Shown here: piece after piece, positions 3,057 to 63,715 of the stretch
How the letters are laid out: each line of letters starts with the position of its first letter
Numbering within the stretch: position 1 is the first letter of the stretch
DNA from: a virus
Lineage: Duplodnaviria; Heunggongvirae; Uroviricota; Caudoviricetes
Direction: 5' to 3' (one strand)
Length of the DNA stretch: 64,000 bases
Virus record (IMG/VR): IMGVR_UViG_3300033120_000816
Notes under the pieces: generated by a model
The model's database searches: none
Told to the model about the DNA's origin: nothing
Seen by the model: only the letters and a program-made list of their open reading frames with translations
Translations under genes and position numbers: made by a program

Positions 3057-5297
3057 ATGTTACAAGCCAATTTATTTGACACGATCGCAGCAGCAACCAA
3101 CCCACAGACAGCAGGCGCAATGATAGCCAGCATAAACACAACTCGAAGCCAAGCCCCAGCGCAGCCAGAACCAGCCCCGATAATATTTAATAATATCGGG
3201 GAACTATTACACCATTGTAACAAGGTAGGCACTAAGTTTTTAAGTTATGCCGAGTATGTTAATATGAGATCTCAAATATTAGCGCAGGAATTAAAGATTA
3301 AAAGTATCTTAAATTCTATGACAATTCCCGAGCTTAAAAAATATGTATTCACATACGGCAGCCCAAAAAAGACGGAATTAATTGATAAATGTTATGACGG
3401 AATTATCGCATATTTTTTGTGTGATAAAACCGTTAGTTATATGCCATTCAGCGGACAAACATACGAAGGAGAGCGCGCAAAAGTATTACAGTCAATCACA
3501 GAACAGGACTATAACAATTATGTAATTGAAGAAGATGCAAAGCGAGCAGATAAAGCAGCAAAAAGAGCAGCAACGGAAGCCGCCATACAAAACCCTACAA
3601 CCTTAGATGATTACATCAAATTTATAAAAGTCAAAGGAGAAGCCGCGTTAACGATAGAACAACGCGCAATAGTAGACGAACTACTGACAGAGAAGCGCAG
3701 AGCCGAGAGAGCCAGCAGAGAACAAAGTAATAATGTAGTTAAAGCGGTGGAAGTTTCCGAAGGGCTACAAATGGAGATTAAGACCAGCCACCACGCAAAG
3801 AAAAATATACCCCTTTGGGTGGTGGTATTGTCAACCCGAATAGACAGCAACCAGTTTGCAGAACTCAAAGACAGAGCGCACAAATTAGGCGGCTATTACT
3901 CCAGTTTTCGCGGTAGTGGTGCAATACCTGGATTTACATTTGAATCACTGCAAAGCGCGGAAATGTTTACAAAGGTTACAGCGGGCAATGTAGATACTAC
4001 AGAACTAAAAGAACAGACCGAAGAAGAACGCCAGCAGGAACGCGCGGAAACACTGGAAGAGAAAGCCCAAAGGATAGCAGATACAGCGAATGAGAGCCTA
4101 AACAGAGACCGCAAAGACAACACACACAGAAGAGCAGCCCAAGCGCAAAACGCAGAGCGTGAAGCACTGCAAAAACTGGAATTTTCGCAGATTATGACGG
4201 AGATATCAAACCGCATGAAAGAAGGCAACATTAAGCACCTAACCAAAGTAAACAACATTACAGAAGTTCAAACACTGTTAACGCTGCTTAGTGCTGCAAA
4301 ATGGAAGCACATAAGCGAAAAGAAAATAGATGTAAAAACATACGGATATACCCCCAGTATTGAGACCGCGCAGTATGTTGTATTTCCCTATCCTAATTTT
4401 TGGCCCGAGAACGCAAACAGGGATATAGTTACAGTAATGAACGAACCAGGCAAAAAGATGGCAGCCGCAAGAATGCAAAAACGCATTAAAGCAATGTTGA
4501 AGGATCAGAATGTATATTACTGCAGCAGTACGCAAGAAATAGAAGATTACGAAACCGTATTTTGTGATCACTCCAAATACCTTGACAAGTACACCCGCCA
4601 GAGATACGCAGAGAGCTTAAACAGATACAAGCGCATAACCAGAATAGGACTATTAACACCGCCTGAATTAAGGGCCGCAATTCGGGAGCTTATCTCTATC
4701 ATTAACAATATAGGAGGAGCCACGCCAGAACAAAAGAGAATGCAGGAAATTAGAGAGGTCGAACGCAAATTTAGGGGAGCTAATATAGATGGATTCTTTC
4801 CAACCCCTACCAGCTTAGCAATTGAGATAGTAAACAGGGCAGGCATTGAAGAGGGGAACACAATATTAGAGCCGTCAGCAGGCTTAGGCCATATAGCCGA
4901 CATTATAAATAACACATTCGGTGATAGTGTAAAAATGGACTGCATAGAATATCATAGCGGATTAACTGAAGCCCTGAAGGTTAAAGGCCACAACGCAGAG
5001 AACACCGATTTTTTGACCATTACCGGCAGGGAATATGACCGAATAGTAATGAACCCACCATTCGAAAACGGACAAGATATTGACCACCTACAGCATGCAT
5101 ACACACTTTTAAAACCACATGGCCGCATTGTCTGTATAATGGCAAATAACAAGCGGAACAACTCCAGTAAATCCCGCCAGTTTTTACAATGGCTTAATGA
5201 AGTTGGGGGAGTGATGGAGGAAAACAACGACCGCGCTTTTATGTCATCATTTAGGCCCACAGGGGTAAGTACTGTAACGGTTGTAATCGACAAATAA
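3057..5297 (+). CDS. 746-aa protein with a C-terminal SAM-dependent methyltransferase domain (N6-adenine / amino-MTase type, NPPF motif) and a large N-terminal domain of unknown function
   Basis: C-terminal 'ILEPSAGLGHIAD' matches motif I (FxGxG-like). 'DCIEYH' gives an acidic beta-2 end. 'VMNPPFENG' is the motif IV NPPF. 'LKPHGRIVCIMAN' is the motif V/VI strand. The N-terminal ~550 aa includes a Glu/Arg-rich coiled-coil segment. Confidence 0.75.
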   Translation: MLQANLFDTIAAATNPQTAGAMIASINTTRSQAPAQPEPAPIIFNNIGELLHHCNKVGTKFLSYAEYVNMRSQILAQELKIKSILNSMTIPELKKYVFTYGSPKKTELIDKCYDGIIAYFLCDKTVSYMPFSGQTYEGERAKVLQSITEQDYNNYVIEEDAKRADKAAKRAATEAAIQNPTTLDDYIKFIKVKGEAALTIEQRAIVDELLTEKRRAERASREQSNNVVKAVEVSEGLQMEIKTSHHAKKNIPLWVVVLSTRIDSNQFAELKDRAHKLGGYYSSFRGSGAIPGFTFESLQSAEMFTKVTAGNVDTTELKEQTEEERQQERAETLEEKAQRIADTANESLNRDRKDNTHRRAAQAQNAEREALQKLEFSQIMTEISNRMKEGNIKHLTKVNNITEVQTLLTLLSAAKWKHISEKKIDVKTYGYTPSIETAQYVVFPYPNFWPENANRDIVTVMNEPGKKMAAARMQKRIKAMLKDQNVYYCSSTQEIEDYETVFCDHSKYLDKYTRQRYAESLNRYKRITRIGLLTPPELRAAIRELISIINNIGGATPEQKRMQEIREVERKFRGANIDGFFPTPTSLAIEIVNRAGIEEGNTILEPSAGLGHIADIINNTFGDSVKMDCIEYHSGLTEALKVKGHNAENTDFLTITGREYDRIVMNPPFENGQDIDHLQHAYTLLKPHGRIVCIMANNKRNNSSKSRQFLQWLNEVGGVMEENNDRAFMSSFRPTGVSTVTVVIDK

Positions 5298-22916: not shown

Positions 22917-25900
22917 CTATTTTCTCGGTTTTATTTCTTTTTCTTTCCCCCAGTGCTCCCACCCGATTACTTCAAGGTCTTTTTCAGGTATTTGGCGTAT
23001 CAAATCGTATATCATACCCTTGTAAAGATATCCTTGTTTTATACTCTCTGGCTTAAGATACGGGTAGTTCTCTTCCTTTTCTGCCCCTAACGAGTATTTT
23101 ATATCCTTGTATAGCCTGTAGTATGCGGGAAGTATCGGCAATCCTGGCACAAATGCCTGAGATGCCTGCCCAAACTCACCTAATGCGTGCTCTGTGTCGC
23201 CCTTTCCGTATTTTTGTACGCCTCTCTGAATTTTTGTAGCTGGGCTGTACTGGGACTGATTTAATCTTGTCATTTCTAAAACAACATCCATACCTTTTGC
23301 CATGGCTTCGTTTGTGTCCATACCTTCTGATAGCCCGTATAGATATGTCATTGCCCCTATAGGTCCAGCCGTGCGTTTTATTACGTTAGATAGCGCATAC
23401 TTATCTTCCGCATACTTAGATGCTGCCTCAATAAGCCCTTCGTCTTCATCTTCCCTTACCAGCGCGCCTAGGGCCGCCATTGCGCTGAAGGCAACCAACC
23501 CCTGAGTTAGTCCAACAATGGCTCTACCTGCCTCACTTTCGTAGGTTATGGTTCTTTTCATGGCATCCTCCATAGCCTTAGCGTTAGATGGGTCGTATAG
23601 TTCTTGTTTTGCTTTGGAGTACTTGCCAGTTATCAAGTTCCTAAAACCTAGCCCAGCACTATCCAGTGTTAGCCACACCCAGTTAGTGCCGCCAGCCATC
23701 AACTTTAAGATGCCGTCATAGTACATTGTTGACTTAATCAGAGTCGCCCCAGCTTCTTCGTATTTGCCTGCTTTTATCAACTGGTCGTATTTTCGTTTAG
23801 ATTGCGCTCTACCAGCTTGTATCTTCTCCGAAAGTATATTGTTTGCCTCGTGCCCCAATGCTACCCCTGCTCCTGTTTTTGCAGCCTTGAACGCAGCTTT
23901 CACAACTTCTGGGGTAATTGCTGGGTTGCCGTTAAATGTTCCCGCTTCGGTTGCCATCTGCAGGTTGCCTTTTATCATATCGTCAGCAAGTCTTATTGCT
24001 GCTCGTTCTTTGGATGCCTTTGACTTACCAACACCCATTTGTTCGCCAAACTGGTCTATGATTTGCCTAGCCTGCTGTTGTACTTGTTCCCTTTTTTGAC
24101 CGTACATAGACTCGTAAAGAAACTCCGTGGCATCCTCTTTTGTCCAGCCTGCTTTTTCTAAGGCTTTATGCATTATGTTAAGGAAGTTGTAGTTCCTGAT
24201 TACAGCTTTGTTGCCCGCATCTAACCCGTTCAGCGCGGCTCTATACATGAGAATAGACAGGGTTTTTGCTGCTTTTACGGGGGTTGCCTTAAAATCCAAA
24301 GAGTCTAGCTCTCCCATAGTCTGTACATATCCAAATTTACCGCTTGCGTCTGTTGATGCCGCTCCCATCGCTACATCCGCAACCATTTTGCGCCACAGTT
24401 CGCCTTCTTTGAACTTCGTAGTTCCGGTTTGTGCTGCTAACTGCATCTTGGCTTGCATGGTTGATAGCTTGCCGGTTGTTGCGTTTTGCAGCATATTCCA
24501 CGGGTTGCTTATCAGCGTAAAGTTGTGCAGAGAAAACCACTTACTCATGAACTTCCCTATCTTGAGTAACTTGGCTTTGTCTGCTTGATTGCGCTCAACT
24601 ATTCGGTTGATTCCTTTTTCTACAGTAGATTCAATGGTTTCTCCTAGCCTTAGACCGGTCATAGCTGCCGACTTGGTATAGGCTTCAATAATTGATTTAA
24701 TCTCATTCATGTCGTCAACGCTCATTTTATCTAAGCCTATTGAGGACATAAGCAATTTTTCTCTTGCTCCTTCAAATACCCCCATAGCCTGAAGTTCCGC
24801 TAGTGCTTGAACTGCGGATTGTCTCTCAGGGGAGTTGCGTTCTACTATTCTTTCCTTGGCGTCTAGTACAGATTGCGCGTGTTCTTTTGCGTTGGCAATT
24901 AGTTCTTTATATGAAGAGGTTAAAGCGTCGGATATTTGCGATATCTCTGCTGGGTCGTACCCTTTATCTTCTAGGCTTACCTCTACAATATCTCTTAGCT
25001 GCCCTTCCGTTAAATTGGCGCCAGATATTTTTCTCCAGTCTAGTTTGCGCCCTGCACTATCACCTTTCCCGAATTTCAATGTTTTGGACAATATTTCAGC
25101 TAGGATATTGTGAGCTTCTGTTCTCTTGAATATTAAAGGTCTAGTGGGGTCATTGAACTGTTTCCTAGCCCTTTCCACGTCTGCCATTCTCTTAGAAATG
25201 ATGTCGGCTATGTCTATTGGCTGCTTTGCATTGGTTGTTTGTGGTTGCCATGACTCCTCTATTGCCTCCATTGTTCCTTTGACGTACTCTTTCATCTTGT
25301 CCACCATATCAGTGTACATGTTTTCCATAGCGTCTGCGGCCATCTCTGACATCTCCTTGGAATACCCAGCGTCTTTCATGTAGTCAATTACCATATCCCT
25401 TATGTCGGTAGGGCTGCTTATTTGGTCTGCCATTTTCTCTAGGTTAATCCTGTCTGCCCCGGTGGTGTATTTTTTTATGAGCCCGTTTTTGTCTAAAATG
25501 TGCATCATCAAGTCTTTCACCAGTTTTTTAGACATAGTGAGCTTTGCGTCTGGTTTCTCCGCTAGTTTACGGTAGTTTTCAAACCCACGCATATACTCTG
25601 ACAATACATCCTCGATTTTTGGAGCTGGCTTCTTTGTCCCTTGGGCTGCTGCTTGGCTTGTTGTGGGGTCGTACTTACCGCCAGCTATCCTTGCCATAGT
25701 GGTTTTTGCGTCTATGAACTCTCTTGATAGGTTGTCGGCTATTCTTTCGGCCACAAATTGAGAGTGCCCAGCATCAACCATCGCCTCAATTACGTTTTTA
25801 CGTATCTCAGATACTGTACCCAATTGATTACTTGCTTTAGCCCAGTCAATAACAATTTCTCCTTTAGTATTGACTTTTGCGTATCCCTTGTCTACTAACG

Positions 25901-54976: not shown

Positions 54977-55066
54977 GGGCACACAACCGGATTTGAACCT
55001 GTGACCTCAGTCCATCTGGAGTTAACCATGGGGAACCTGCGCTCTAACCAACTGAGCTATGTGCAC
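54977..55066 (-). tRNA. tRNA gene with an extended anticodon/variable region (isotype undetermined)
   Basis: Reverse complement: GTGCACA-TA-GCTC-AGTTGGTTA-GAGC ... CAGG-TTCAAAT-CCGG-TGTGTGC. That is a 7-bp acceptor (two G-U pairs), a canonical D-arm and a T-loop. The middle is ~16 nt longer than a class I tRNA, with a possible variable-arm hairpin ACTCCAG-ATGGA-CTGAGGT. Confidence 0.5.
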
Positions 55067-55308
55067 CTTGTTTTTTATCAGGGATTTCTACCCTATCGTG
55101 GAGTCGGCGAAATTCGAATTCGCGTCCAAACAACTTTCTCCTCGCAAACGTTACGCTCATGCTCTTGTTTTATCGCTGCTGGCTTCAGCTATTCGATTGT
55201 GAATCGACAACTATTGAAGTTTTGCTAGGGGATTTATGAAGAGGTCTTCCACTCTCCCTCATGACGGCTTATCCCATGCCTACACGTCTATACCGTAGTG
55301 TTTTTGGT

Positions 55309-55524
55309 TTAGGCTGCTGTTGCCATAGCAAACTCGCCATCGAAAATACTCTCAAGAAGAGCATCTACATCACCGTCGAAAGAAACTGTAGTTTCTGCGT
55401 TTATTGTTTGAATACATTGTTTAGGTAATAACTGTATTGAAAAGTGATTTTCCGACTCGAACGGCCTACTTGCTGGCTTGTTGTACATCGTACCCCCTGT
55501 CTCCCTTTTTAACACTGTTAACAC
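55309..55524 (-). CDS. hypothetical protein (71 aa)
   Basis: Isolated short ORF between the tRNA island and the gene at 55709..56272. Confidence 0.35.
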   Translation of the reverse strand: MLTVLKRETGGTMYNKPASRPFESENHFSIQLLPKQCIQTINAETTVSFDGDVDALLESIFDGEFAMATAA

Positions 55525-55708
55525 TGTTACATTACTTTAGGTGCTATATCCTTGCACCTGAGCGCGTTTACTACTTTACTCATTGCTGTCAAAACCGTTC
55601 GACCCCAATTGTGATGTAAAGATACACTTTGTTTTGATAAAACAAAAAAAGCACCAAAATTATTTTTTTGGTGCTTTTCAAATATTTAGATCTATTGTTC
55701 TTTTTCTT

Positions 55709-56272
55709 TTAGCTTATTACTTCCCAGTCCTCAGCAAGCATATCCATTGTGGATGGTTTCCAGCCAGCTTCTATTGTCCCCTGCGCTGACTTAAATGCAA
55801 AGTATGCACCGTAAGGAACTAAGGCGTTTTCTCCAAATTCTTTTTTAGCCACGTCCGTTTGGGCTGGGTAGCTGTTTGCTGGTACATAGTAAAGAAACAT
55901 ACCTTTGCCATTCCACCCTGGGCGAGTTAGCTTTTCTCCGTTCTTGAGAAGGCGTATTGCGTCACCAAATGTCAAGTAGGTTTTGCTACTTCCTTCTTCT
56001 TCAGACACCTCTTCGTATGTAGCAGCAAATATATCGGGCTTGCAGGGGTAAAACTCGCCTTTTATGCCTTTAATTATGTAGTCACCAATAGATGCCTCCA
56101 TTACCCCCTCTAAGGTTGGTATATATAACCTTGCATCTTCTATTGTGCCACCAATAGGTACGGGCTTCATTTCCAACTCTTTGCCGATAAATCTTTCTAT
56201 CCTGATTGTACTGATTGCTCGGCAATCCCATTGCATTGCTTCAATCACTACTGGTTTTTTTCTGTACTGCAT
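55709..56272 (-). CDS. 187-aa protein carrying an RxGWNGKGMF motif, tentatively DUF2829-like (the family that includes the anti-Thoeris sponge Tad2), with an internal duplication
   Basis: 'FGDAIRLLKNGEKLTRPGWNGKGMFLYYVPA' matches the R-x-G-W-N-G core I recall for DUF2829. The N-terminal half 'RKKPVVIEAMQW...' looks like a degenerate second copy. Confidence 0.55.
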   Translation of the reverse strand: MQYRKKPVVIEAMQWDCRAISTIRIERFIGKELEMKPVPIGGTIEDARLYIPTLEGVMEASIGDYIIKGIKGEFYPCKPDIFAATYEEVSEEEGSSKTYLTFGDAIRLLKNGEKLTRPGWNGKGMFLYYVPANSYPAQTDVAKKEFGENALVPYGAYFAFKSAQGTIEAGWKPSTMDMLAEDWEVIS

Positions 56273-56294: not shown

Positions 56295-56360
56295 CTGTAA
56301 AGATACGTAGTTAGTTTGAAATAAAAAAAGCCCACACATGGCGGGCTCAAAAAAAAATAA
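56295..56360 (-). promoter_or_regulatory. Terminator-promoter cassette: hairpin GCCCAC-acatg-GCGGGC flanked by A/T runs (bidirectional terminator, 56321-56360), then TATCTTTACA -7-like box (56297-56306) for the gene at 55709..56272
   Basis: On the minus strand the hairpin is followed by T7. The same TATCTTTACA core serves the early plus-strand promoters. A similar 'TTTGAAATAAAAAAGCCCA...' cassette recurs at 59822-59860. Confidence 0.45.
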
Positions 56361-56574
56361 TTGCAGCACTCTACTTTTTTTACCGTTTCTGGCGCGTCTT
56401 ACATGTATCCGAATTGATTGCTTTCGGGCAATCTCCTATCAGTAACGGATGGTTACTGCGCTCCTCTCTATGGTTTGTGCGGAATGTAGGGATTTGAACC
56501 CAGTATGCAGCCGTTATCTGCTATTCCAGTTTGTGTTGTTCTTATGCGTCTCCTCCCATGAGGTAAAATTAGTT

Positions 56575-56644
56575 GCGGTAACAGGACTCGAACCTGCGAC
56601 CTATAGGTTATGAGCCTACCGAGCTAACCACTGCTCTATACCGC
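56575..56644 (-). tRNA. tRNA-Met (anticodon CAT; elongator Met or Ile2-type)
   Basis: Reverse complement: GCGGTAT-A-GAGC-AGTGGTTA-GCTC-G-GTAGG-CTCATAA-CCTAT-AGGTC-GCAGG-TTCGAGT-CCTGT-TACCGC. All arms pair, U33 is present, the anticodon is CAT. CCA is not encoded. Confidence 0.8.
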
Positions 56645-56690
56645 GATACAAATGTAGGAAGTGTTTTTGAAATAAACAAAATCAAAAAAA
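56645..56690 (-). promoter_or_regulatory. Bacteroidota-type promoter for tRNA-Met: -33 TTTG ... 20 nt ... -7 TACATTTG immediately upstream of the tRNA 5' end
   Basis: Minus-strand sequence is ATTTTGtttatttcaaaaacacttccTACATTTGtatc-GCGG(tRNA). This is an exact match to the TAnnTTTG consensus with canonical spacing. Confidence 0.5.
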
Positions 56691-59369: not shown

Positions 59370-59810
59370 TTAGCTATTCACTGAATATATAAGCAAATTC
59401 AATCGCTCCAAAACATCTCCACCTGTGTGGCCGTCCCACTCAGGCGCCTTCTCTAGCTCTTCGGCAAAGTAGCACTTATCCCACTCTGACATTGGTAGGT
59501 GGTAGGTAATTTGCTGACCTTTGGATTTATATATACCCAAGATAAACCAACCTTCTACCTCGTGCCCACTTGAGTGCGCTTTGGATTTCCATACTGGGCT
59601 ATCTCCTTTACAGTACTCCCCGTTGCGACTTGGGTACGCTATTTGCTTTGCCAACAACATGTACAGTGCTATCCGGTGGTTATACAACTCTCCGAATGTA
59701 TGGTAGCCATCGCTTATGTCGTCAGTGGCTATCTGACCTGCGTTTGCCCTCTCTTTTATGAGGGTGTTGATTTGTTGTGCGTTCATTTTATTGTGTGTTT
59801 TGTTCAGCAA
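59370..59810 (-). CDS. hypothetical protein (146 aa) with SDGYHTFGELYNHR motif
   Basis: ORF. I do not recognise the motif. Confidence 0.5.
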   Translation of the reverse strand: MLNKTHNKMNAQQINTLIKERANAGQIATDDISDGYHTFGELYNHRIALYMLLAKQIAYPSRNGEYCKGDSPVWKSKAHSSGHEVEGWFILGIYKSKGQQITYHLPMSEWDKCYFAEELEKAPEWDGHTGGDVLERLNLLIYSVNS

Positions 59811-59886: not shown

Positions 59887-60300
59887 CTAAGGATTGTCGA
59901 TACCATTATCTACTTTAGAATACTCAAAAACTAAATGATTGGCTATGTGGTTAAACTCTAGGGTATTTTTATCCTCACCTGTAAGAGTTTCATACATTCT
60001 ATTCGGAACAATATTAGCCAATGCGTGCAAAAAAGCTTTTAAATTGTCATCATTTTCAAAGTCTGATTGCTTTATGTAATGGTCAGAATTTTCGTCAAAT
60101 ACAGTTGCTACTGCCATCCCTAATTTTACTGCATACTCAAATTGTTTTTCCATTTTTAGTAAGTTTTTATCCGCTACCTGCGGAATGTAAATGTAAATAA
60201 ATATTCCTGAACAATCCTTGCTTTTGTGTAAATATTTTTTACCTTTGATGCTGATTAAAAATAAATACACACAACATGATTCATTCTGAGTTTGATTCAA
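59887..60300 (-). CDS. hypothetical protein (137 aa); last gene of the minus block
   Basis: ORF divergent from the chaperonin cassette. Confidence 0.45.
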   Translation of the reverse strand: MNQTQNESCCVYLFLISIKGKKYLHKSKDCSGIFIYIYIPQVADKNLLKMEKQFEYAVKLGMAVATVFDENSDHYIKQSDFENDDNLKAFLHALANIVPNRMYETLTGEDKNTLEFNHIANHLVFEYSKVDNGIDNP

Positions 60301-62060
60301 CGTCAGGGGTTTTTACTATCCCCGTTACGCTAAAAAAAGGTGGGGTAGCTAATAGAATACTTGTCAAACCAAAACCCAAAGATGTAGAGGTTTTAGGAAG
60401 TGGGCTGCAACTTCCACCAGGTAGTAAACTTATTTGCGACTCAGGCGTAGTTATATCTTGTGATGAAGGTTCTGCCGTAAATGTCGGGGATAAGGTTGAC
60501 TACAAAGTAGTGACTCGATTTGATGGTTCCGATGCGCCAGTTTACATTGACAACGAGCCATACGTGATATTGTTTGAGCACGACTTGTGGGCTGTAAACG
60601 ACATTCCATTCAATAGGGTGTATGTTCGACCTATATCGTCCACAATGGCTATTGGTGAAGATGGCGGATTAATTATACCTGTCAATACCAAAAGCTACGT
60701 ACAGCATGGCATTATCATTGCTGCTCCAGTAAACAATGACGACTTTCATGTAGGGGATGTTGTTTCCTACAGAACCAATGAGCAAGGTATGTTCCCTGAA
60801 GTAATAGACAGCAACGGGGATAAGTACAATGTATTGCGCACCACCGACGTCTATACAATAAACGGAGAGGCTGCACCCAACAAAATGATTGTCAAAATCA
60901 ATGTGTTGGAGCAGATGAAAATGAGGATGATAGACGACACTCAGTTGCAGGTACACCCAGCATTTGCCTACATGAAACACTACCTTCAATACGGCAAAAT
61001 AGTATCTGCCGGGTATAAGGCTTTGATGGCTTATGACGGGATTGATGTAGGCGACTATGTTGTTATACACCACTCAATTGAGCACCAAGATTTTAGGTTA
61101 CTTTCTGAGAAGTCTAACTCCAAGGGAATAGTTGTAAGTGAAGAGCGAATACTTGAATGTGTTAAAGATAATTCAAGAGAGATATTTGGAAAGATAGTGT
61201 TCAATGCTGATGCTAACGGCAAGCGCGTGCCAGCAAATGGTATATCTCATATAGATCCTGTTAACGGGAATATCTTCCTTGACTATCAAATAACTCCGCT
61301 TGAGTCAATCACACAAAAAGAACCAGAGGAGATGCTGGAACGTGTGGGGTTTGATTTATCCAAAGTAAGGACTGTGGACGAACTGGTGTTTTTAGTGGAT
61401 AATGCCAAGAAAAGAGGGGTTACTACATACACTGAGGATTTCAATCAAATGAAGGAGGTTCTAAGAGTTTTGAACCCAGAAGTTCCAAAGGATAAAAACG
61501 AGATTGACCTTATCGAAACAAAGATTGAGTTACTAAGACGTAATGCTGAACTAACTGCAGGACGTATCGGTAAGAATCATTTGATGGTCTGCAAGGCGTC
61601 AAATTACGCTATATGCGATTTGAGCCTAGGCGAGCAAGCACACATACACATAGTCACCCAGTCCTCTCAACTTTACCCAATAAAAGTAATGGGTAAAAGA
61701 TTTCTCATTGCACATAGTTCGTTTATAAAAGCAAGATTAACACACAATTGTAAAACAACAGAAAACATGGAAATTAAAGTAGGGGAATTCACCCCATTCG
61801 CTGACCTAGTATTGGTACAGCCCATTGGAGACACACAACTGAAGGATAGTAGCCTTATCCTGCCATCAACAGCAACCTTTGAAGCTCCAACTTATGGGGT
61901 TATCATATCGGTTGGCCCCGGCACTGACAAGGTGAAGATGGTTGTAAAAAAAGACACAAAAGTAGTATACAGAAAAGGTGTAGGCGAACCTATACATCTT
62001 GATGGGGTTGACTACTTGCTGCTGAGACAAGATGACCTGCTGCTCGGCAAGTTGGATTAA
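60276..62060 (+). CDS. single-chain poly-cpn10 protein (594 aa) with at least 4 tandem GroES-like domains
   Basis: The clear cpn10-like domains are aa 24-106, 112-196, 202-296 and 497-594 (R[IV]xV[KR]P ... GGhxhP ... GxVhA ... VxVGDxV ... YhhhxxxDhhAV). Weaker copies sit at aa 297-345 and 431-495. The C-terminal copy closely follows the GroES pattern (LVLVQPIGD...SSLILP...YGVIISVGPG...VVKKDTKVVY...DGVDYLLLRQDDLL). Confidence 0.7.
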   Translation: MIHSEFDSTSGVFTIPVTLKKGGVANRILVKPKPKDVEVLGSGLQLPPGSKLICDSGVVISCDEGSAVNVGDKVDYKVVTRFDGSDAPVYIDNEPYVILFEHDLWAVNDIPFNRVYVRPISSTMAIGEDGGLIIPVNTKSYVQHGIIIAAPVNNDDFHVGDVVSYRTNEQGMFPEVIDSNGDKYNVLRTTDVYTINGEAAPNKMIVKINVLEQMKMRMIDDTQLQVHPAFAYMKHYLQYGKIVSAGYKALMAYDGIDVGDYVVIHHSIEHQDFRLLSEKSNSKGIVVSEERILECVKDNSREIFGKIVFNADANGKRVPANGISHIDPVNGNIFLDYQITPLESITQKEPEEMLERVGFDLSKVRTVDELVFLVDNAKKRGVTTYTEDFNQMKEVLRVLNPEVPKDKNEIDLIETKIELLRRNAELTAGRIGKNHLMVCKASNYAICDLSLGEQAHIHIVTQSSQLYPIKVMGKRFLIAHSSFIKARLTHNCKTTENMEIKVGEFTPFADLVLVQPIGDTQLKDSSLILPSTATFEAPTYGVIISVGPGTDKVKMVVKKDTKVVYRKGVGEPIHLDGVDYLLLRQDDLLLGKLD

Positions 62061-62110: not shown

Positions 62111-63715
62111 ATGAGAGTAACCGAAATGGCTTTTGCGGCAGACGCCAAGCAATCACTCATGGCCGGAGTAGATAAAGTAGCAAACGCTGTAAAGTCCACA
62201 CTGGGACCTGGCGGCAGACATGTTGCTATTCAAAAAGGAAAGGGTAAGGCGCCACACGTAACCAAGGATGGCGTTACCGTGGCTGACAACATAGGCGCAC
62301 TGCAAAACCCTTACGAAGACATAGGCGCACAACTTGTAAAGCAGGCGGCACAAAGAACTGCTGCTGTGGCAGGTGACGGAACCACCACATCTACCGTTCT
62401 GGCTCAGGCTATGATAAAACATGGGTTTGAAGCACTGAAAAAGGAGAATGTAAATGTTGTGCAACTGAAAAGAGAGATGGACGAAGCTACTGCGATGGTG
62501 GTGGATACTATCAAGCACACTGCAAAGCAAATAAGTATTGACTCAAATGATATGGTGCACATTGCCACTATATCCGCAAACAACGACTCCGAACTTGGGA
62601 AGATTATTGCCCATGCTATGCGTATTGCTGGAGAGGATGGTGTAGTTACCGTAGAGCCATCTTCTACCGACGACACCAGTGTAGTTGAGTCTATTGGACT
62701 TGAGGTGGATAAGGGATTTATATCCGATAGGTTCATTAACGACTCTGAAAGAAGCCGAGTTGAGCTTATCAATCCGGTGATACTATTGTATCCAAAAAAG
62801 ATCAGCGACGCTAGGCAGATCGCAAAACTCATGAGTGATTGTCTTATTGCCAAACGTCCTGTGCTTGTCATAAGCGATAACGTAGACTCTGACGCGCTTG
62901 GCATGATGGTAAGAAACCAAGCACAACTTACATGTTGCGCTATCAAGCTCCCTCACTATGGCAGCCAAAGCCTTGAAATGCTAGAGGATATAGCGGTGGT
63001 AGTTGGTGGTACCGTAATAAGCGAAGACGCTGGGCAAGAATTGTCTAAGACAACCATTGCTATGTGTGGATCTGCGGAAAGGGTAGTGATTACCAAGGAT
63101 AAAACCATCATTACCAAAGGTGCCGGTACTCCTGATAATGTAGCCAAAAGGATTACCCAGTTGAAAAACTACCTGACTAGCGATGCTATAAAGCCGCAGG
63201 AAGTAGGTATCATAACAAAGAGAATTGCTAAGATTCAGGGCAAATCTTCTATTATTTACATTGGCGCTCCTACAGACGTAGAACGCAGGGAAAAAGCAGA
63301 TAGGGTAGATGATGCCTTACGCGCTACAAAAGCTGCAATAGAAGAGGGTGTTGTTGCTGGCTCTGGGAATACACTGGCCTATATATCTAGGCGCATGTTT
63401 ATGATGATGAATAAGCCTGGGCATGTTGTGATACAAGGTGCGCTTACGGCGCCTATGCAAACAATAATGAGCAATGCTGGGTTATCAGATAATACTATCA
63501 ACGTAAAGATAAACAGTGTTGATTACGGGCTTGGCATGAATTTATCTCCAACTAACACCTCGAATGAGACAATATCCCTCATAGAGTCTGGTGTAATTGA
63601 CCCCGCAAAGGTGGTTCGTGTAGCCTTGGAGAATGCAAATTCCGTAGCTGGCATGGTATTAACAACCGAGTGCCTGATGGTTGAGTCAGAAGAAACATTG
63701 CCTAACAAAAAATAG
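62111..63715 (+). CDS. groL: chaperonin GroEL/Cpn60 homologue (534 aa)
   Basis: 'AGDGTTTSTVLAQA' corresponds to GroEL 'AGDGTTTATVLAQA'. 'TLGPGGRHV' is present. 'EEGVVAGSG' corresponds to 'EEGVVAGGG'. 'VIDPAKVVRVALENANSVAGMVLTTECLM' corresponds to '[29 protein letters not shown]'. There is no C-terminal GGM tail. Confidence 0.85.
   Translation: MRVTEMAFAADAKQSLMAGVDKVANAVKSTLGPGGRHVAIQKGKGKAPHVTKDGVTVADNIGALQNPYEDIGAQLVKQAAQRTAAVAGDGTTTSTVLAQAMIKHGFEALKKENVNVVQLKREMDEATAMVVDTIKHTAKQISIDSNDMVHIATISANNDSELGKIIAHAMRIAGEDGVVTVEPSSTDDTSVVESIGLEVDKGFISDRFINDSERSRVELINPVILLYPKKISDARQIAKLMSDCLIAKRPVLVISDNVDSDALGMMVRNQAQLTCCAIKLPHYGSQSLEMLEDIAVVVGGTVISEDAGQELSKTTIAMCGSAERVVITKDKTIITKGAGTPDNVAKRITQLKNYLTSDAIKPQEVGIITKRIAKIQGKSSIIYIGAPTDVERREKADRVDDALRATKAAIEEGVVAGSGNTLAYISRRMFMMMNKPGHVVIQGALTAPMQTIMSNAGLSDNTINVKINSVDYGLGMNLSPTNTSNETISLIESGVIDPAKVVRVALENANSVAGMVLTTECLMVESEETLPNKK

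Follow-up and report, generated by a model that had tools for sequence, protein, structure and literature searches.

The window analysed here is a stretch of 64,000 nucleotides from a tailed phage (Caudoviricetes; IMG/VR record IMGVR_UViG_3300033120_000816). A short gene on its minus strand encodes a protein in which a C-terminal domain of the Tad2 family of immune-signal sponges is joined, via a flexible linker, to an N-terminal domain that constitutes a phage protein family of its own. The gene is preceded by a putative promoter element and has intrinsic terminators on either side. The features of this cassette, all on the minus strand, are:

55709..56272, minus strand: complete open reading frame from the open reading frame listing (187 amino acids plus stop, ATG start), encoding the two-domain protein
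56003..56272, minus strand: N-terminal domain (N-domain), residues 1-90, PGDYG-like, with the motifs KKPVVIEAxQW ... TLEG ... GDYIIKGxKGEFYPCKPDIFxxTY
55979..56002, minus strand: acidic linker, residues 91-98 (EEEGSSKT), with a low predicted local distance difference test score (pLDDT); breakpoint of the module swap in the related contig L090
55712..55978, minus strand: Tad2-like domain (PF11195), residues 99-187, with the GWNGKGM loop (W120, N121) and the W171-x-x-S174-x-x-D177 motif
56296..56305, minus strand: TATCTTTACA box, an over-represented decamer and putative -7 promoter element, 23 nucleotides before the ATG
56328..56348, minus strand: upstream intrinsic terminator from a pattern scan (-12.4 kcal/mol, z -4.3, then U7)
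55646..55679, minus strand: downstream intrinsic terminator from a pattern scan, with a stem of 14 base pairs (-17.3 kcal/mol, z -6.2, then U7)
55615..55624, minus strand: second TATCTTTACA box from the decamer scan, 9 nucleotides before the 5' end of a transfer-messenger RNA (tmRNA)

An earlier note on this DNA had tentatively linked an RxGWNG core in the encoded protein to DUF2829/Tad2 and had named a hidden Markov model search with PF11195 and a comparison of the predicted structure with Tad2 structures as suitable checks; both bear the link out. The PF11195 profile (Tad2-like, formerly DUF2829) aligns with residues 101-186 over profile positions 2-73 of 73 (E = 9e-22; 77.8 bits versus a gathering score of 25), and the peptide quoted in the note, LKNGEKLTRPGWNGKGMFLYYVPA, makes up residues 109-132 of the 187-residue frame. 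All sequence matches in the PDB are Tad2 proteins (9EIB, 8V3E, 8KBI, 8SME, 8WJD and 9KZR), with phmmer returning ModTad2 (9EIB/8V3E) at E = 4e-24 and the Tad2 of phage SPO1 (8SME) at E = 4e-14. The domain is 52.9% identical over 87 amino acids to ModTad2 and 36-39% identical to the other characterised Tad2 proteins. As a single protein, Tad2 typically comprises 85-95 amino acids.

The predicted structure agrees with the profile assignment. An AlphaFold2 model based on 79 full-length homologues has a mean pLDDT of 90.8 and a whole-chain predicted template modelling score (pTM) of 0.50, with a confidence trough in the linker (pLDDT of about 55 at residues 91-100, and below 50 at residues 94-96). 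The high confidence within each domain, the pTM of 0.50 and the trough at residues 91-100 together point to two rigid domains on a flexible linker. In the C-terminal half, the model contains helices at residues 102-110, 140-146 and 175-179 and strands at residues 114-116, 126-130, 133-136, 151-154, 157-161 and 183-186, which corresponds to the Tad2 fold. Foldseek retrieved 24 Tad2 chains from the PDB at probability 1.0, among them ModTad2, HgmTad2, SptTad2 and SPO1 Tad2, and nothing else below E = 0.2; the best match was 9EIB (E = 1.5e-10; template modelling (TM) score 0.82), and target-normalised TM scores among the Tad2 chains reached 0.87.

The principal ligand contacts of the family are retained as well. 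In the HMMER alignment, W25, N26, W73, S76 and D79 of SPO1 Tad2 correspond to W120, N121, W171, S174 and D177 of the window protein, and the same five contacts are W21, N22, W87, S90 and D93 in HgmTad2 (contact residues from Yirmiya et al., bioRxiv 10.1101/2023.05.01.538930, and Li et al., bioRxiv 10.1101/2023.11.15.567273). Across the 79 homologues, conservation at these positions amounts to 92-100%. A Tad2-type module at residues ~99-187, and hence a candidate immune-signal sponge, is well supported by profile and model. The proposal in the earlier note of a nucleotide-signal sponge or anti-defence protein thereby gains good support for the C-terminal half, which is a new member of a known and well-studied sponge family.

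The closest characterised relative of residues 99-187 is ModTad2, also termed MoTad2, from a Myroides odoratus prophage (PDB 9EIB, 8V3E). Both proteins carry the GWNGKGMF and W..S..D motifs, and their β2-β3 insertions are of near-equal length (26 residues in the window protein versus 24). ModTad2 is, however, a single protein of 89 amino acids, whereas the window protein has an unrelated 90-residue N-terminal domain, and the pocket lining differs at two positions (M176 versus Ser, F160 versus Leu). ModTad2 sequesters histidine-linked adenosine diphosphate ribose (His-ADPR), the signal of type II Thoeris; a second pocket takes up the Pycsar signals cyclic uridine monophosphate (cUMP) and cyclic cytidine monophosphate (cCMP), and the cyclic ADPR isomer 3'cADPR is not sequestered (bioRxiv 10.1101/2024.01.03.573942; 10.1101/2025.08.24.671296). 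Since the Tad2 domain of the window is closest to ModTad2, a ModTad2-like specificity is our best guess from sequence, if one that we hold with reserve and would put slightly below an even chance; 3'cADPR would be the main alternative ligand.

SPO1 Tad2 (gp34.65; 8SME/8SMF/8SMG), the founding member and a sponge for 3'cADPR and 2'cADPR, shares family, fold and the five principal contacts with the window protein, but is only 39% identical, consists of a single domain and has different adenine-side residues; V141 takes the position of F44, by which SPO1 Tad2 occludes its second pocket. HgmTad2/AcrIIA7 and SptTad2 (8KBI-8KBM, 8WJC, 8WJD) are dual sponges of Bacteroidota phages for glycocyclic ADPR (gcADPR) and for cyclic dinucleotides (cyclic GMP-GMP, cGG, and cyclic GMP-AMP, cGAMP). 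The window protein has the Tad2 core in common with them, as well as the residues of the gcADPR pocket (W21, N22, G23, W87, S90, D93 and T82 in HgmTad2). In contrast, its β2-β5 insertion is 26 instead of 41 amino acids long, and the cyclic-dinucleotide pocket of HgmTad2 is not conserved, with R31 replaced by V130, N85 by A169, K46/S47 deleted and F70 kept only as an aromatic residue (Y154); HgmTad2-type binding of cGG is, thus, unlikely.

The N-terminal half is predicted by AlphaFold2 as a confidently folded, beta-rich domain. Its predicted secondary structure runs strand-helix-strand, four strands and helix, and that of the C-terminal half helix, three strands, helix, two strands, helix and strand. 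Residues 1-90 gave no match in Pfam or NCBIfam and no sequence or fold match in the PDB, in which structures of Tad1, Tad2 and Acb2 are present. The PHROG families that the domain matches (419, 1810 and 4502) are all labelled 'unknown function', and its matches in BFVD are only uncharacterised or 'PGDYG' phage proteins, many of which are longer fusions.

This family is remarkably large and mostly made up of stand-alone proteins. In a search with the N-terminal half, 7,998 of the 8,000 candidates were significant, being stand-alone proteins of 80-100 amino acids, and an exhaustive profile search yielded 25,685 representatives of 50%-identity clusters at E <= 1e-3 (16,545 at E <= 1e-10). By tblastn, the domain is present in 874 of 50,697 phage genome records, with Mycobacterium, Bacillus, Staphylococcus, Gordonia, Streptococcus, Acinetobacter and others as hosts and with SPO1-like and SBSphiJ-like Bacillus phages among the carriers. 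Across 83 sequences with 49-88% identity to the query, 14 positions are invariant, and nine of the invariant residues are polar (K5, T53, E55, D64, E73, Y75, C77, K78 and Y86).

A distant kinship exists to PGDYG (PF14083), a family without known function for which no mention was found in the literature searched. The PGDYG profile spans 102 positions and is made up of two tandem units, one of which is the counterpart of residues ~42-86 (TLEG...GDYIIKG.KGEFYPCKPDIF); unlike PGDYG, the window protein has a single unit, which is placed behind the KKPVVIEA strand and a helix. The window protein itself did not match PF14083 even at E <= 10 (gathering score 27 bits). Its N-domain relatives score E = 2e-5 to 0.08 (13.7-26.2 bits) over profile positions 2-45, that is, half of the profile, and tandem forms match in full, with E = 6e-14 down to E = 5e-94. 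Given the sub-threshold, half-profile scores of the relatives, we place the kinship at superfamily level only. A polyvalent-type protein of 3,743 amino acids (P0241) combines 19-29 PGDYG/N-domain-like repeats with annexin, zeta-toxin/AAA and KMPT-N domains and, judging from its sequence, illustrates that the unit can be massively repeated.

By sequence or fold, residues 1-90 match none of the known sponge families Tad1, Acb2, Acb4 (PF13876), Sequestin (PF21825), Lockin, TadIV-1 and RyR Tad. Lockin, Sequestin and Acb4 were rejected as identities of the N-domain, since each accompanies it in fusions as a domain of its own; in fold, the beta-rich N-domain stands apart from the helical TadIV-1 and Sequestin; W38 and H61, the key residues of Acb5, are without a conserved counterpart; and the N-terminal domain of the RyR Tad protein gp68 (gp68_N) is unrelated, with an hhalign probability of 0.35% against the N-domain profile. 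The annotation 'MazG-like nucleotide pyrophosphohydrolase', which is found on actinophage homologues, was likewise dismissed as an annotation transfer, its source being genuine fusions of the N-domain with PRA-PH: gp51 of Gordonia phage DatBoi is an 84-residue stand-alone N-domain, and gp42 of Microbacterium phage Schubert is the only actinophage protein checked that has a real PRA-PH/MazG domain (residues 112-195).

The union of the N-domain with Tad2 is a recurrent architecture: among the best 120 homologue clusters at 90% identity, no fewer than 109 span at least 93% of the protein. Longer homologues have the order N-domain-Tad2-Sequestin (P0013 and others) or Acb4-N-domain-Tad2 (P0102). 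In the supplementary tables of Tal et al. (bioRxiv 10.1101/2025.07.12.664507) the N-domain is contained in fusions to Lockin (Table S4) and to Sequestin (Table S1), and fusions to MazG/PRA-PH also occur. Both domains of the window protein are autonomous and also exist as stand-alone phage proteins, and Tad2 is a validated sponge family, as is expected of a multi-module sponge fusion. The natural multi-sponge fusions Acb4-Tad2 of Pasteurella phage Pm86, Tad2-Sequestin and Acb4-Sequestin (Tal et al. 2025; Fedorova et al. 2026) show the same design of small domains and flexible linkers in one chain; in those, however, both modules are validated sponges, whereas the N-domain of the window is only a candidate. 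Acb4-Tad2 of Pm86 blocks both Thoeris and CBASS (bioRxiv 10.1101/2025.07.12.664507), which argues that Tad2 tolerates an N-terminal fusion.

Sequestin was discovered via Pfam fusions to Tad2 and Acb4 (Tal et al., bioRxiv 10.1101/2025.07.12.664507), and the same fusion logic makes the N-domain a candidate sponge-type module. The N-domain is not mentioned in the text of that study, and its YPCK motif is absent from Table S2, which comprises the 124 tested candidates; having no Pfam family, the N-domain was invisible to a Pfam-based fusion screen. The literature searched contains nothing on the PHROG identifiers of the N-domain or on its fusion to Tad2, an architecture that is, accordingly, undescribed there.

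The most telling comparison comes from a related contig, L090 (1-1412, SRR29362693 contig; protein P0004), in which the same terminator, TATCTTTACA box and 5' untranslated region drive a RyR-Tad fused to Tad2. Identity to the window, of ~88% at the DNA level, resumes exactly at K97-T98-Y99 in the linker, and the two Tad2 domains differ at three of 91 residues. RyR Tad, the C-terminal domain of vB_PatP_CB1 gp68, is without sequence or fold kinship to the N-domain; its role as a sponge for gcADPR/cADPR has been validated (Fedorova et al., bioRxiv 10.64898/2026.06.04.730250). The N-domain, therefore, holds the slot that is filled by a proven sponge in a sister phage. For the double-sponge architecture of RyR-Tad plus Tad2 in L090 itself, no mention was seen in the sponge papers cited.

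The expression signals fit a unit of its own. The earlier note had proposed a separate terminator-promoter cassette for this gene, and a TATCTTTACA box before the ATG together with minus-strand terminators on either side confirm it. The description of the terminator as bidirectional holds only weakly: the downstream hairpin also folds on the plus strand (-16.6 kcal/mol) but is then followed by UUUU only, and the upstream hairpin is followed on that strand by an A-run, not by a U-tract. The upstream terminator is predicted to close the transcript of the neighbouring tRNA-Met and to insulate the Tad2-fusion gene. At the second TATCTTTACA box the next transcription unit begins, and the cassette thus ends there.

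In the window, TATCTTTACA occurs in eight exact copies, compared with 0.27 expected, and none of 100 shuffles reached eight. The positions of these copies are:

228, 1354, 6290 and 10204, plus strand: TATCTTTACA exact copies
22893, 23030, 55624 and 56305, minus strand: TATCTTTACA exact copies

Seven of the eight copies precede a gene: one lies 9 nucleotides from the 5' end of the tmRNA, the others 17-35 nucleotides from a start codon; the exceptional copy at 23030 sits within a coding region. TTTG is found 17-23 nucleotides upstream of the box in five of the eight copies, and TG usually precedes it. The genes behind the boxes are small and accessory (a 69-residue frame, a J-domain-like protein of 168 amino acids with an HPD motif, and frames of 152, 89 and 185 amino acids). 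The sigma-A promoters of Bacteroidota follow the consensus TTTG at -33 and TAnnTTTG at -7. The TATCTTTACA box looks like this -7 element, and a host from the same phylum would be implied by analogy; the box probably represents a phage promoter class for genes that are read by the host RNA polymerase.

Conservation among relatives singles out the same elements. In a metagenomic contig that encodes a 94% identical protein (L008), conservation extends over the box, the gene, the downstream terminator and the following box, whereas the stretch immediately before the first box has diverged; the downstream terminator of L008 is identical to that of the window except for one additional A in the loop. 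The box is exactly conserved in both L008 and L090, with a diverged upstream flank. Within the gene, the first ~150 nucleotides (window 56120-56272 versus L008 2938-3090) are distinctly more diverged than the near-identical rest, and this step suggests a recombination boundary within the N-domain coding region.

The domain identities, the predicted fold, the conserved contacts, the architecture, the module swap and the expression signals are shown by the sequence analysis and the model. We consider it likely that this phage gene makes up a monocistronic counter-defence cassette, with its own putative promoter and terminator, that codes for a two-module protein, namely a Tad2 sponge with an additional N-terminal module. 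By homology, the Tad2 module would assemble through its α1 helix and β-sheet into a homotetramer, and the pockets between the protomers would bind and sequester ADP-ribose-type signals derived from Toll/interleukin-1 receptor (TIR) proteins, with the result that the Thoeris effector of the host would never be activated. Its ligand would most likely be His-ADPR, with 3'cADPR next, and a ModTad2-like cUMP site may be present. The N-terminal module could act as a second, independent unit for binding or processing small molecules and might widen the range of host signals neutralised, as in Acb4-Tad2 and Acb4-Sequestin. That the N-domain indeed acts, independently of the Tad2 module, on a further signal or metabolite is an analogy that we regard as rather doubtful. 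The same tentative standing, short of probable, is given to the wider proposal that the N-domain family consists of unrecognised, extremely widespread phage counter-defence modules (a sponge or a small enzyme acting on a nucleotide-type signal or metabolite) and that the window protein would be a fusion with two specificities.

Several observations weigh against this account, and they concern both halves of the protein. On the Tad2 side, the adenine-side residues F160, S162, Q164, E168 and M176 (I63, T65, D67, H71 and T78 in SPO1) differ from those of every characterised Tad2, with M176 standing where SPO1 Tad2 and HgmTad2 have an adenine-contacting Thr; M176 and F160 are each present in just three of the 79 homologues. 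Moreover, 19 of 84 sponge homologues, about a quarter, inhibited none of seven systems (Hadary et al., bioRxiv 10.1101/2025.08.24.671296). The same points, namely the rare M176 and F160 and the inactive homologues, speak for an alternative in which the Tad2 domain sequesters a non-Thoeris signal (cUMP/cCMP of Pycsar or an undescribed nucleotide), or is a bait/decoy-resistant variant, and has no anti-Thoeris activity; it would also accord with ModTad2, the nearest characterised relative, blocking Pycsar through its second pocket. However, the contacts to ribose and phosphate of ADPR in the canonical pocket are all intact, and a functional gcADPR site is estimated to be missing from only ~1% of Tad2 proteins (Li et al., bioRxiv 10.1101/2023.11.15.567273), so that we judge this alternative unlikely. 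Far less credible is an activity as an AcrIIA7-like inhibitor of type II-A Cas9 in place of a block on signalling immunity. The idea stems from DUF2829 having first been reported as AcrIIA7 and from the deposition of the matches 8KBI and 9KZR (E = 1e-13 to 1e-15) as 'Inhibitor of Type II CRISPR-Cas system / AcrIIA7', yet Cas9 inhibition by HgmTad2/AcrIIA7 was not reproduced in vitro or in vivo, the protein being a gcADPR/cGG sponge (Li et al., bioRxiv 10.1101/2023.11.15.567273), and the window protein is nearer to ModTad2 (53%) than to AcrIIA7 (36%). The internal duplication assumed in the earlier note, with a degenerate N-terminal repeat and two Tad2 halves forming a pocket as a single-chain dimer, is contradicted by sequence, profile and predicted fold. 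Both halves comprise ~90 amino acids, and 'GDYIIKG' superficially resembles 'GDAIRLLKNGE', but BLASTP of one half against the other aligns 13 residues at E = 7.4, hhalign of the half profiles (76 sequences) gives a probability of 0.8%, the halves differ in the order of their predicted strands and helices, the Pfam Tad2 profile matches only residues 101-186, the Foldseek matches to Tad2 span ~88-103 columns only, and the N-domain stands alone in thousands of phages. In addition, known Tad2 proteins are homotetramers whose pockets arise where protomers meet and not from tandem repeats (Yirmiya et al., bioRxiv 10.1101/2023.05.01.538930). The dimer fails together with the repeat, the N-terminal half being an unrelated, autonomous domain family, and we give duplication virtually no credence.

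On the N-terminal side, the objections coincide with the case for a plain Tad2 sponge that carries a passive 'handle' for solubility, oligomerisation, localisation or macromolecule binding, joined to it by a chance fusion among small accessory genes. The partners of the N-domain are many and mostly unannotated, with a Pfam-recognisable partner in only ~11 of 89 longer family members, and a Tad2 gene lies within 4 kilobases at only two of 62 loci with a stand-alone N-domain gene. Several paralogues may reside in one phage (e.g., Arthrobacter phage Qui), a pattern that a generic adaptor fits as well as a sponge, and the 19-29 repeats in the polyvalent protein mentioned above point in the same direction. 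The N-domain is acidic (17 D/E versus 12 K/R), whereas typical sponge pockets are positively charged, and there is the precedent of gp68_N, which was inactive when tested alone (bioRxiv 10.64898/2026.06.04.730250). Unnamed partners, rare proximity to Tad2, acidity and the inactive gp68_N make the passive handle a serious rival. What speaks against it are the nine invariant polar residues in a family of ~25,700 clusters across many phyla, suggestive of a conserved small-ligand or catalytic site rather than of a fast-evolving protein contact, further the choice of partners, which comprise four or five unrelated immune-signal sponge families and a nucleotide pyrophosphohydrolase, and the swap in which a validated sponge domain takes the place of the N-domain within this cassette. 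On this evidence the handle is a substantial possibility, although we would not quite call it probable.

For the proposed two-module counter-defence protein, the Tad2 half alone would be an ordinary family member; being near ModTad2 with odd adenine-side residues, it could help to refine the specificity rules for His-ADPR, 3'cADPR and cUMP. The main value lies in the N-domain, an abundant and directly testable anti-defence candidate that is far more abundant than the Tad2, Sequestin, Lockin, Acb4 or RyR Tad families. If it were a sponge or a signal-degrading enzyme, a large share of sequenced phages would carry a counter-defence gene that is now labelled 'hypothetical' or, wrongly, 'MazG-like', and the domain could be used as bait for new immune signals, as Tad1 and ModTad2 were. 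If, on the other hand, it proved inert, it would be a caution against guilt-by-fusion in phage accessory regions.

A tractable system for the N-domain is offered by Bacillus phage SPO1L3, in which an annotated Tad2 and a stand-alone N-domain (gene 133) lie 1.9 kilobases apart in a same-strand block of small genes (1363-1635 and 3495-3776 of the locus analysed). On another contig, which codes for a stand-alone N-domain with 88% identity, a 226-residue gene ~1.5 kilobases upstream (1870-2550) is marked PF25185 'Tad3', a label for either the Thoeris anti-defence protein Tad3 or a tRNA deaminase subunit. The notion of a split gene was discarded, as the stand-alone protein P0121 (88% identical to the N-terminal half) does not adjoin a Tad2 gene in relatives.

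The cassette is flanked by RNA genes, as the earlier note had recognised, but its 'tRNA island' is an overstatement, for besides a single canonical tRNA they comprise just an odd tRNA-like gene and a tmRNA:

56573-56645: tRNA-Met
55096-55606, minus strand: tmRNA of about 510 nucleotides (ARAGORN; Rfam RF00023, 55.3 bits versus a gathering score of 47, E = 3.5e-20)
54978-55066, minus strand: atypical tRNA-like gene of 90 nucleotides (Rfam tRNA, 38.8 bits), missed by ARAGORN at default settings

The phage tmRNA is long and has an unusual 29-residue tag, AETTVSFDGDVDALLESIFDGEFAMATAA. At a lowered ARAGORN threshold, the atypical gene is read either with a 4-base anticodon (catg) or as a tRNA-Met with a 17-nucleotide intron. 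Between tRNA-Met and the upstream terminator (56349-56572, minus strand; ~220 nucleotides), no further tRNA was found even at lowered ARAGORN thresholds, and no convincing open reading frame is present. This interval contains a T-loop-like GGGTTCAAATCCC, scored by Rfam as a weak, partial match to tmRNA (56489-56501); the interval may represent a decayed tRNA or a small RNA that escaped recognition.

Phage markers in the window comprise the large terminase subunit (phrog_6681, E = 2e-38), GroEL/GroES and many PHROG families, and homologues of the two-domain protein are found on phage contigs and prophages of six genera (Pantoea, Novosphingobium, Parabacteroides, Halocynthiibacter, Megasphaera and Methylobacterium). 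At the DNA level, megablast against 50,697 phage records gave no match, and the contig index searched does not contain the exact protein. Within the same minus-strand block of small genes as the Tad2 fusion, a 146-residue protein (59370-59810) has a WDGH domain (PF25311, E = 3e-30). The chaperonin pair lies on the plus strand: a protein of 594 amino acids (60276-62060), whose C-terminal ~90 residues match GroES (phrog_3188, E = 7e-22) and whose long N-terminal region is unannotated, is followed by a full-length GroEL (62111-63715; phrog_5725, E = 1e-125). At the other end of the window, a plus-strand gene at 3057-5297 encodes a protein of 746 amino acids that aligns with the central part of huge polyproteins labelled 'DNA methyltransferase' in phages (phrog_15406, E = 5e-182) and could be another gene of the anti-restriction or polyvalent type.

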